64,000 bases of DNA from Escherichia coli. GTDB lineage: Bacteria > Pseudomonadota > Gammaproteobacteria > Enterobacterales > Enterobacteriaceae. The stretch lies in assembly GCF_003790525.1 (NCBI RefSeq), contig NZ_CP033635.1; one strand, given 5' to 3'. This document shows positions 43,764 to 46,700 of this stretch, piece by piece. Below the pieces are notes generated by a model. The model saw only the letters and a list, made by a program, of their open reading frames with translations. It was not told the origin of the DNA and did not search any database. The position numbers were made by a program, and so were the translations under genes. Within the stretch, counting starts at the first letter, position 1, and every line of letters begins with the position of its first letter.

Positions 43764-46700
43764 ATGCAAAAGAAAACGTTATTATCCGCCTGTATCGCGC
43801 TGGCTTTAAGCGGATCGGGCTGGGCTGCTGACATTGATGATACAGATAGTGCAACTCGTCAGCGTAAGGAGACAAGGATACCCTGTCCGACCGCTCACTC
43901 CTCTGAAAAACTAAGTCCGCAACAACTAAAATCGCTCCCGTCTGAATGTTCTACAACCAATGACAACAACCTCTATTCCTTGATTGCCGTTGGCGCTACT
44001 TCACTAATCACCACTCTTGCAGTCCTTGAACTAAACCACGATGACGGTAACCACGCTCATTCCTCTGACAATCCTCCAGTACCGCCTGATGACGATAATG
44101 GCGGCAACACACCGGACGATGGCGGCAATACCCCTGACGATGGTGGGAATACTCCTGACGATGGCGGCAACACACCGGATGATGGTGGCAACACACCGGA
44201 TGATGGTGGCAACACACCGGATGATGGTGGCAACACACCGGACGATGGCGGCAATACCCCTGACGATGGTGGGAATACTCCTGACGATGGCGGCAATACT
44301 CCTGACGATGGCGGCAACACACCGGACGATGGCGGCAATACCCCTGACGATGGCGGCAATACCCCTGACGATGGTGGGAATACTCCTGACGATGGCGGCA
44401 ACACACCGGATGATGGTGGCAATACCCCAGACGATGGCGGCAACGTCACCCCGCCCAAAGAGCCTAAAATCTTCAATAACAATGTCACGTTCGACGAAGA
44501 TAAAGGCACGCTGAAAATTCGTAACGCCACCTTTACCTACAGCAAAAACACCGATGGAACTTATACCCTGACGGCTGGAGATGGCCGGACCACTGTTGTA
44601 CAAGGCTGGGATGTCGACACGGCTGCCAATACTGTAGAAATTACTGGCGTGAATACCCAGGGCGGTATGACGTGGCGTTACGGTAAAGACGGCATTATCT
44701 ATATCACTAAAACCGTCGGCGCAACGGTGGATGACCCCGCGAGCAGCAACGTATTTAACCTCAGCGATGCGGTGCTCACTGACCAGGGCGGTAATGCCGC
44801 GCTGAATGGCGCAACGGTGATTGAAATTAACGGCAGCAGGATCGTCCTTAATAACGACGGTGACATTTCTGCTACGGGAAAAGATTCTGTGGTTGTGGCG
44901 ATGACCGGAAACGACATTACCGTTAACAATAACGGCCATATGGTTGTCGATGGCGGCACCGCGGGCGTGGTTAACGGCGATCGTGCGATCCTGAATAACC
45001 GTGGTGATGCGGTGATCACTAACGGGGGCGCGGGTGTCATTGTGACGGGCGACAACGCGGTCATCAACAACACGGGGCAAAGCGATATTGATGGCGACAA
45101 CTCGGTATCGGTAAAAGTCGCAGGAAACGCAACCAGAATCAAAATGGAAGGCGGGCTCAACGTCAGCGGTGGCGCGCATGGCATTGATGCCACCGGTGAC
45201 AATAACGAAGTCAGCAACAAGGGCAACATTTCGGTGGTGGATGCGCATTCCACGGGCGTGCTGCTGAACGGCGATCGCGCGTCATTCGTTAATATGGGTG
45301 ATATTAACGTTAGCGGAGGTGCAGCGGACGATCACGCTATTGGTGTGCAGATTAACGGCGATAACAGTACCTTTATCAACGTTGGAGATTTAAATGCCGA
45401 CGACAGGGCGACCGGGGTGAAAATTACCGGTGACGCCAGCGACATTGCCCTGGCCGGGGCGATGCATGTCGGGGATTTTGCCTCCGGGCTGGAGGTGACA
45501 GGTAAGAACAATGACCTGTCGTTGTCCACCAATATGATGGATGTCACCGGGAAACAGTCCACCGGGGTGACCATTACAGGTGATGAAAATACCATTGATA
45601 TCACCGGTGATATGGTCGTTGATCAAAACTCTGTCGGGACGAAGATTGTTGGTGATCGCGTTTCGTTGCAACAGAAAGGTGATATTACCGTTAACGGTGC
45701 GGGGCACGGCGTTGAAGTCAGCGGTAGTAAGGCGACAATCAATAATCAGGGCAAACTGACCGTAAAAGATCAAGACTCAATCGGTATCGCTATCACCGGG
45801 GATGACGCGCAATTTACCACCGTGGGTGAGATTGATGTCTCGCTGAATGGTACGGGTGTTGCGATCAGCGGCGATCGTGAACAAGTGAATTTGAGCGGTG
45901 ATATAAATATCATTCAGGAGCGTGACGACAGCGGTACTTTCCAGGGCGGGACGGGCATCAGCATAATGAGCAACGACAGCAGCATGCTGTTGGCGGGAAA
46001 CATTAATGTGACGTCCAGCATAGGGGACCAACCGTCCACCTCACACCTGTCGTTAACCGGCGTTACCATCGGGGGGGAAAACAATACTGTCGATCTGCAA
46101 GGCGACGTCAATATTACTGTCGATTCGGGTTACCCGGGGGATGAAAACAGTCTTTACGGCGTGGTGGTTTCGGGGTCAAATAACATCATCAGCCTCGATG
46201 GTGGTATCAATATTTCCGGCGATAGTGGCGGACATGTTGTCAAAGGCGTGCAGGTAACCGGGAATAATACCGTCAATATTAGTGGTCATTCCGTAATGAA
46301 TACCCGACAGGTATTGGGAGCCTTCTCTTTGATTTCGGTGGCTGATGGCGGGAATGTCGTATTTGATGAAAATGCGATAACCGAGATCCAAAGTTCAGTG
46401 AGAAATACTACTGCCCCTCTATTTGTTGATTCATCGTTAATTGTTGCTAAGGGAAATCAGTCTGTTATTCAGAACAAAGGCATTATTAACACAACCGATG
46501 CCCAGGGATTAATGATGGCGAATTCGGGGGCGAAGGTTGTCAATGCCGGGGTGATTAATATCAGGCCAGATGCTGAATCACACAGTTTCTTTGCTGGAAT
46601 GCTGGCAAGAGGCGATGACTCGCAGGCAAAAAATGTCTCCGGAGGGACAATCAATCTGACATCCATTACCCAGCCTTCTTACGGCGGAGGATTTAGTGAA

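Follow-up and report, generated by a model that had tools for sequence, protein, structure and literature searches.

Background

The question raised by this locus is what part is played by a long in-frame tandem repeat inside a bacterial surface protein, and whether such a repeat is kept for its peptide, for its length or for neither. The DNA concerned, called the window throughout, is a stretch of 64,000 nucleotides (nt) from the Escherichia coli contig NZ_CP033635.1 (assembly GCF_003790525.1), taken at its full length. At the ydbA locus it carries an autotransporter gene of the BigA/YdbA family, and near the 5' end of this gene stands an array of 21-bp units encoding the heptad DDGGNTP. In-frame variation in repeat number, as displayed by this array, is well known from bacterial surface proteins. 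The array probably acts as a variable number tandem repeat (VNTR) which encodes a flexible polyanionic spacer, joining an N-terminal module to the BigA_N domain and the passenger. The array is already present in public annotations, though undescribed there, and literature searches returned neither a paper on the DDGGNTP array nor a published functional study of ydbA as an autotransporter or adhesin.

Results and discussion

The repeat array and selection on its peptide

Read codon by codon, positions 44091-44453 (363 bp, amino acids (aa) 110-230) are composed of 17 in-frame units placed head to tail, with a core of perfect heptads enclosed between two slightly longer edge units (Table 1). The first-pass annotation of the window, which was made from the letters alone, had placed about 17 units at 44093-44446; the count was right, and the limits were a few bases off. 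Tandem Repeats Finder reports the array at 44098-44443 with a period of 21, 16.5 copies, 86% matches and 0% indels, and also calls a higher-order period of 84 bp within it. The back-translated pattern GAYGAYGGNGGNAAYACNCC is matched 15 times in the window, always in register, and 0 times in 100 shuffles preserving dinucleotide composition.

The 15 core units belong to 6 DNA types, which differ at 6 variable sites, each of them a third codon position and each synonymous. At least 8 mutations are needed to generate this variation, and with synonymous changes accounting for 15/63 of the single-base changes, the probability of such an outcome is about 1e-5. On a broader scale, the variants among the 19 internal DNA unit types found in 11 alleles are synonymous in 9 cases and nonsynonymous in 2 (binomial P = 8e-5). 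As the variation among units is almost wholly synonymous, purifying selection acts on the heptad peptide while synonymous sites drift, which is what had been proposed at first pass from the third-position differences among the copies.

These figures bear directly on the simplest alternative, according to which the expansion has no function and is a tolerated product of slippage, selected neither for sequence nor for length. Such a reading is improbable, since neutrality does not predict an almost entirely synonymous variation among units, and nearly all the family members read have retained an acidic linker at this site. It draws its support from the alleles themselves, as those of 6 to 18 units all lie in otherwise intact genes, and from K-12-type alleles, which manage on a non-repeated linker of 30-40 aa; furthermore, K-12 has a pseudogene here, and some strains carry a frameshifted copy.

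Several long open reading frames (ORFs) cross the array, namely 44031..45248 on the minus strand (405 aa), 44041..44514 on the plus strand (157 aa), and 44057..44530 and 44008..44406, both on the minus strand. Their overlap is most simply explained by the repeat having no stop codons in the other frames.

Copy-number variation among strains

Copy number was inferred from the megablast span in 43 genomes, and ten alleles were fetched and read unit by unit, which confirmed the counts. A span of 1037 bp (17 units) was found in 22 genomes, all 100% identical and coming from humans, chickens, dogs, a pangolin and river water. The remaining spans were 1016 bp (16 units, 9 genomes), 911 bp (11 units, 4 genomes), 995 bp (15 units, 3 genomes) and, in 1 genome each, 1058 bp (18 units), 953 bp (13 units), 890 bp (10 units), 806 bp (6 units) and 1035 bp, the last one in strain LS45 and representing 17 units with a 2-bp deletion. 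Eight copy numbers were therefore seen or inferred (6, 10, 11, 13, 15, 16, 17 and 18), and the length differences are multiples of 21 bp with the sole exception of LS45. The first-pass annotation had anticipated that changes in copy number would keep the frame, and the comparison across E. coli genomes bears this out, with counts that range from 6 to 18.

The peptide itself hardly changes: the unit is DDGGNTP in all ten alleles read, save for single units with an N-to-H or a T-to-I replacement. The same polymorphism is visible in the 90%-identity protein cluster, where full-length members of 1984, 1956, 1942 and 1907 aa correspond to 17, 13, 11 and 6 units. In the ten alleles the 327 nt located 5' of the array are identical and the 340 nt located 3' differ at 0-13 sites. 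With flanks which are nearly identical while the copy number varies, the array is evolving more rapidly than the sequence around it. The partial proteins P0184, P0191, P0194 and P0196, all from the 90% cluster of the window protein, start inside the array (TPDDGGN...). Short-read assemblies thus often break there, and copy numbers taken from them are untrustworthy, which calls for caution with such assemblies at the array.

Simple-sequence arrays in surface proteins may act as on/off switches, with slippage moving the gene in and out of frame. Phase variation of this kind was considered for the locus and rejected, given that 21 is divisible by three, that all length differences but that of LS45 are multiples of 21, and that the array lies within the coding sequence (CDS). 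The LS45 allele (L011, NZ_CP095448.1), which is out of frame inside the array, is the observation in its favour; its lesion is a 2-bp deletion in unit 12, which splits the ORF into two annotated CDSs in an allele otherwise equal to that of the window. This deletion could be a real inactivating mutation or an error of assembly or consensus, and it involves no change in the number of units, so that frame switching at this site is extremely improbable.

A second role suggested by variable repeat number is immune evasion. Under this hypothesis the repeat would be an exposed, immunodominant epitope, the number of which is selected for altered antibody recognition, a role that has been put forward for the GGXXP region of Bordetella pertactin. 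The host protein is an autotransporter with a repeat number that varies among strains, and the array evolves faster than its flanks. In Bordetella pertussis pertactin (Prn), the GGXXP repeats form a loop on the beta-helix. Pertactin is also the closest precedent, as its polymorphism resides mostly in the number of these repeats (PMC1459169). The antigenic reading is nevertheless unlikely to be the right one: the unit peptide is near-invariant across alleles and its number alone changes, the copy number is fixed inside widely sampled clones, and identical heptads occur in unrelated lipoprotein-like proteins of metagenome-assembled genomes, described below.

Region 1 of pertactin resembles the window in being a short in-frame Gly/Pro tandem repeat of a classical autotransporter, with a copy number that defines alleles (PMC1459169). 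It differs in having few units of 5 aa, whereas those of the window are 7 aa long, number 6-18 among alleles, are strongly acidic and predicted to be disordered, and make up a linker that precedes the entire helix on its N-terminal side.

How units are gained and lost

When the units are labelled by their DNA type, the window array reads A B C D E E E B C F D B B C D G H, and the six-unit allele of strain SBF22, with flanks 100% identical to those of the window, reads A B C D G H. The SBF22 allele is equal to the window array minus the 231 bp between the two copies of a 77-bp direct repeat (Table 1), and one deletion is therefore sufficient to explain it. At the other end of the scale, differences of a single unit separate CE10 from N32 and 980-2 from 2014C-3075. 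Both kinds of change point to units being gained and lost through slipped-strand misalignment or unequal recombination, which would take place between identical units or between multi-unit blocks. With a unit of 21 bp, events of this kind would keep the reading frame and alter the length of the spacer alone.

A probable disordered polyanionic linker

The 121 residues of the array peptide comprise 34 Asp, 34 Gly, 18 Asn, 17 Thr, 17 Pro and 1 Val, with a net charge of -34 and without Lys, Arg or large hydrophobic residues. An AlphaFold2 (AF2) model of aa 1-324, built with the family alignment, has no secondary structure in the array (aa 110-230), where the predicted local distance difference test (pLDDT) score is about 40-55. 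The Pfam search placed no family over the array, the PDB sequence search with aa 1-340 gave no match, and a Foldseek comparison of the aa 1-324 model with PDB structures had no significant hit, lipocalin-like barrels coming closest at E = 0.15. On the strength of these models, the array looks like an intrinsically disordered polyanionic linker. The repeats had been placed near the start of the ydbA passenger domain at first pass; this holds insofar as they lie N-terminal to it, as a linker before BigA_N, and fails in that the array is outside the beta-helical passenger.

Two further roles were examined in relation to this composition. Asp/Gly/Asn heptads might fold or stiffen upon binding Ca2+ or Mg2+ in the manner of RTX repeats, and the presence of 34 Asp in 121 residues within an Asp-Gly-Gly-Asn composition is in line with such a role. 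Metal binding is very unlikely all the same, because a 7-residue unit with no hydrophobic position misfits the GGxGxDxUx motif, because Pfam finds no calcium-binding repeat family on aa 1-1000, and because the linkers of relatives (DPTP, VDP) retain acidity and proline alone. An RTX calcium repeat in the strict sense was rejected, the unit being a heptad and not a nonapeptide, and no profile matching aa 1-1000. The array was also considered as a glycosylation site, which is unlikely in that the unit has no N-x-S/T sequon and no glycosyltransferase gene adjoins the gene, its neighbours being ydbL and pdxI.

The spacer reading, by which the in-frame VNTR links the N-terminal module to BigA_N and the passenger, offers a coherent account of these properties. 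An acidic, Gly/Pro-rich make-up suits a flexible and extended tether, and a tether of this sort should pass the autotransporter pathway. Charge repulsion would stretch the chain out and keep it off the anionic cell surface, and the lack of basic residues would make it a poor substrate for proteases requiring them, leaving few protease sites. The number of repeats would then decide how far the N-terminal module stands from the remainder of the passenger. The spacer is presumably exposed at the surface, and its length presumably matters for function; of the components of this reading, the functional consequence of length is the least certain.

Secretion of such a segment has a parallel. In PMC4174580, which cites Kang'ethe and Bernstein 2013, long acidic disordered segments are described as passing the autotransporter pathway efficiently, with acidity being needed; to that extent, the composition of the array is compatible with secretion. 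The fusion of an RTX receptor domain with EspP presented in that paper is likewise a long, disordered and highly acidic autotransporter cargo. It is an engineered chimera, whereas the window carries a natural linker of predicted secretion only.

The host gene and its domains

The coordinates of the features are collected in Table 1.

Table 1. Features of the autotransporter gene and of its repeat array (positions in the window)
Feature	Position	Strand	Basis or remark
Intact autotransporter gene, ydbA locus, BigA/YdbA family	43764..49718	+	single ORF, 1984 aa plus stop
Predicted signal peptide, aa 1-21, MQKKTLLSACIALALSGSGWA then AD	43764..43826	+	sequence reading, family conservation
Conserved Cys loop C41-P42 ... 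C62 (CP-x19/21-C)	43884..43949	+	family alignment
Hydrophobic Gly/Ala-rich segment, aa 70-90, LYSLIAVGATSLITTLAVLEL	43971..44033	+	Kyte-Doolittle 19-residue means up to 1.9
His/Asp-rich lead-in and PPVPP, aa 91-109, NHDDGNHAHSSDNPPVPPD	44034..44090	+	sequence reading
Repeat array	44091..44453	+	17 in-frame units, aa 110-230
Edge unit DDNGGNTP, 24 bp	44091-44114	+	first unit of array
15 perfect 21-bp DDGGNTP units	44115-44429	+	array core
77-bp exact direct repeat, copy 1	44115..44191	+	longest internal repeat of array
77-bp exact direct repeat, copy 2	44346..44422	+	partner exactly 231 bp (11 units) downstream of copy 1
Edge unit DDGGNVTP, 24 bp	44430-44453	+	last unit of array
BigA_N small beta-barrel domain, aa 237-315	44472..44708	+	Pfam PF25784, E = 4.6e-27
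Repetitive beta-helix-type passenger (approximate limits, predicted fold)	44721..48416	+	G-D-x-x-x-x-x-N-x-G-type repeats
BigA beta-sandwich domain, aa 1552-1636	48417..48671	+	Pfam PF25783, E = 3.8e-24
Autotransporter beta-barrel (translocator), aa 1758-1954	49035..49625	+	Pfam PF03797, E = 1e-17

Read from its domains, the host protein is a classical (type Va) autotransporter, and it is assigned to the BigA/YdbA subfamily because PF25784 and PF25783 are both present. The first 1,037 nt of the gene are 100% identical to the CDS of WP_001170210.1 in strain SMS-3-5, which is not flagged as a pseudogene, and the protein is identical to a 1984-aa product found on 544 contigs. The Prokaryotic Genome Annotation Pipeline (PGAP) names identical proteins 'pectate lyase-fold domain-containing'. 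The NCBIfam model auto_BigA (NF033178) scores 1911.5 bits against a cut-off of 3400 and matches aa 526-1984 only; as judged from such comparisons, the 1984-aa protein is a relative of BigA and not BigA itself.

The predicted signal peptide can be read directly as MQKK followed by LLSACIALALSG and GWA, with a family-conserved, predicted cleavage site before AD, and AF2 places a helix at aa 4-15 within it. BigA_N begins six residues past the end of the array and is modelled by AF2 with nine strands and a pLDDT of about 90. The protein terminates in ...KKTF, the last residue being Phe.

The N-terminal module

Between the signal peptide and the array, aa 22-109 (43827-44090) are conserved, with a Cys-Pro pair, a second Cys, a Gly/Ala-rich hydrophobic segment and a His-rich patch in every BigA/YdbA member examined. 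C41, P42 and C62 are invariant among 26 diverse family members, and C41 and C62 probably form a disulfide bond. The spacing between the cysteines is 19 residues in every member read, and 21 in the window class only. The family consensus of the hydrophobic segment is W.AGG.AA..A.V, in which G77 is nearly invariant. A His/Gly/Asp/Ser patch is found at the position of the lead-in family-wide. A moderately hydrophobic, Gly/Ala-rich segment is unusual at the distal end of a passenger. Searches of Pfam, NCBIfam and the PDB gave no match to the module, and the open literature searched yielded no study of either the module or the linker.

Linkers across the family and recurrence outside it

Homologues were collected by a word-indexed protein search with aa 1-420, which was limited to 8,000 candidates and gave short or partial proteins only, and by an exhaustive search of 1.84 billion representatives, which gave 143 matches. 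They share an N-terminal plan in which the signal peptide is followed by the Cys-Pro pair and the second Cys, by the hydrophobic segment about 10 residues further on, by the His/Gly/Asp/Ser patch, by an acidic linker and finally by BigA_N; in some members the linker runs straight into the beta-helix instead. An acidic low-complexity linker was detected in 28 of the 29 members scanned, with a length of 17-162 aa, a net charge of -2 to -39 and periods of up to 11 aa. In the remaining one, P0181, the scan detected no linker, yet DGGSGGDT repeats are present. The linker of the window, with 146 aa of low complexity and a charge of -39, is among the two longest found.

What varies is the unit. It is DDGGNVTPP in P0045 (about 16 copies), DDGGDTPIPP in P0052 (7 copies), DDSGDITPTPP in P0053 and DDSGDDDVTPP in Salmonella BigA-type proteins, and other members have VDP, DPTP/DPIP, NNTGNGGD or DGGSGGDT. 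In E. coli itself, a sister class carries (DDGGDTPVPP)n at the homologous site in units of 30 bp, with n equal to 7 in 118UI, 10 in WP8-S17-ESBL-12 and 8 in EcPF15 (L012-L014). One DDGGDTPVPP unit in this class has a Pro-to-Ser replacement, and the class amounts to another in-frame VNTR located at the position of the window array. The arrays of the two E. coli repeat classes both end in DDGG(N/D)VTPPKEPKIF. The K-12-type linker is a non-repeated acidic Pro/Thr stretch, PPDDESDDTPVPPTPGGDEIIPDDPDDTPTPP, of 30-40 aa, which varies by point substitutions and one indel of a single residue.

The linkers of 118UI-type proteins, Salmonella BigA and K-12 YdbA are thus similar to that of the window in occupying the same site after the N-terminal module and in their acidic Asp/Gly/Thr/Pro make-up, and differ from it in the sequence and length of their units, the K-12 type being without a repeat. 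From the alignments, the conserved feature is an acidic, Gly/Pro/Thr-rich and presumably unstructured stretch at this site, which has been expanded in tandem with units that differ between lineages.

The DDGGNTP heptad also occurs outside the family. In P0029, P0030 and P0031, proteins with a lipoprotein-type signal peptide, 6-10 heptads follow closely on the lipobox Cys and precede the globular part, and P0035 likewise combines a lipoprotein-type signal peptide with DDGGNTP heptads. In two such lipoprotein-like genes from metagenome-assembled genomes (L016 3001-4530 and L017 3001-3702), the heptad units differ at synonymous sites only. These lipoprotein tethers share with the window identical heptads and units which vary only synonymously; they have a lipid anchor upstream, in place of a hydrophobic peptide segment, and no other similarity, so that their heptads look like a case of convergence and not of homology. 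That the heptads recur where a membrane anchor is joined to a domain is in keeping with the role of a tether.

A possible active tip at the end of the tether

The spacer reading can be refined by supposing that the repeat is a length-tunable tether of an active N-terminal tip. The Cys loop and the hydrophobic helix would then form a device shared across the subfamily, either a 'hook' which inserts into membranes or associates with itself, or a second anchor in the envelope. Since an autotransporter passenger has its N-terminus at the distal end, such a device could be a hook cast out from the cell. This refinement is tentative and, on balance, rather doubtful. In its favour, the module is conserved in 26/26 diverse members aligned, whatever the unit of the linker, linkers have been expanded with different units in different lineages, and DDGGNTP heptads follow a lipid anchor in the lipoprotein-like proteins. 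Two known proteins serve as leads only: NalP is N-terminally lipidated, and VacA, which is secreted by an autotransporter, has an N-terminal Gly-rich hydrophobic segment. The BigA barrel is of the NalP type by sequence (PMC3419190). Against it stand the AF2 models of the module (pLDDT 32-60), the lack of a Pfam, NCBIfam or PDB relative for the module, and the hydrophobic segment of the window, which keeps one family Gly only.

Weighing the spacer reading

Several observations weigh against a spacer of functionally selected length and the module it is supposed to carry. The copy number is stable within a clone, as the 22 genomes of varied source all have 17 units and an identical sequence; given this invariance, the change in copy number is slow and could be largely a neutral drift in length. 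Alleles are annotated as frameshifted in 2014C-3075, MS 21-1 and LS45, and the gene is dispensable in some strains. Moreover, the N-terminal module is modelled at low confidence only, as a probable helix in two AF2 runs.

The locus and its relation to K-12 ydbA

Approximately 17 kb around the gene are equal to SMS-3-5 except for two single nucleotide polymorphisms (39232 and 51393) and one 1-nt deletion, so that the window belongs to a close relative of this strain and not to SMS-3-5 itself. SMS-3-5 has the gene as an intact CDS between ydbH-ynbE-ydbL and pdxI-ydbD. Downstream, pdxI and ydbD are common to the window and K-12; upstream lies ydbL here, versus paaY/ynbG in K-12. The 43307-43763 interval is the intergenic region between ydbL, which adjoins the gene upstream, and the autotransporter. 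In K-12, paaX, paaY and ynbG are found directly 5' of ydbA, and the whole fea-tynA-paa cluster lies between ydbL and ydbA there, a block that is absent from the window.

The annotation of K-12 treats ydbA as a pseudogene, broken into three pieces by IS2D and IS30C, in agreement with the disruption by IS2 and IS30 named in the first-pass annotation. The companion claim, that ydbA is uninterrupted here, stands for the gene as such, a single ORF in the window and an intact CDS in SMS-3-5, and does not stand for its identity with the K-12 type. When the product is compared by tblastn with K-12 ydbA, identity is 55% for aa 1-111, falls to about 32% in the passenger and rises to 69% in the final 610 aa; in terms of sequence, the window gene represents a divergent, BigA-like class of alleles at the ydbA locus, and not simply an intact K-12 ydbA. 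A megablast search with the 5' kilobase found the allele class of the window in 185 out of 5,426 complete E. coli genomes, with 43 of these 185 carrying the DDGGNTP subtype, and K-12-type 5' ends, which are without the repeat, in 2,419 of the 5,426.

Two observations concern annotation at the locus. The ydbD homologue, which is one 2307-bp CDS in both SMS-3-5 and K-12, is split in the window into the ORFs 50844..51590 and 51590..53155 by a frameshift, the A-run at 51549-51554 having one A fewer than in SMS-3-5. In addition, many K-12-type YdbA N-terminal fragments are named 'EntS/YbdA MFS transporter' by NCBI (P0008, P0009, P0011-P0013; H207, H208, H211-H213). This looks like a mix-up of ydbA with ybdA, the sequences being autotransporter N-termini with BigA_N.

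Conclusions

The array is a clean natural case of a coding repeat which is selected for its peptide while its copy number drifts or adapts. It is a possible strain-typing marker for a minority lineage of E. coli, in a class which includes SMS-3-5, CE10 and IAI39. It also points to an unannotated N-terminal module, present across all the BigA/YdbA autotransporters examined, which is the less understood part of these proteins. If the length of the linker tunes the reach of this module, the natural alleles of 6 to 18 units would constitute a ready experimental series, and if the module is indeed a hook or an anchor, the repeated independent expansions at one site would reflect selection on reach.

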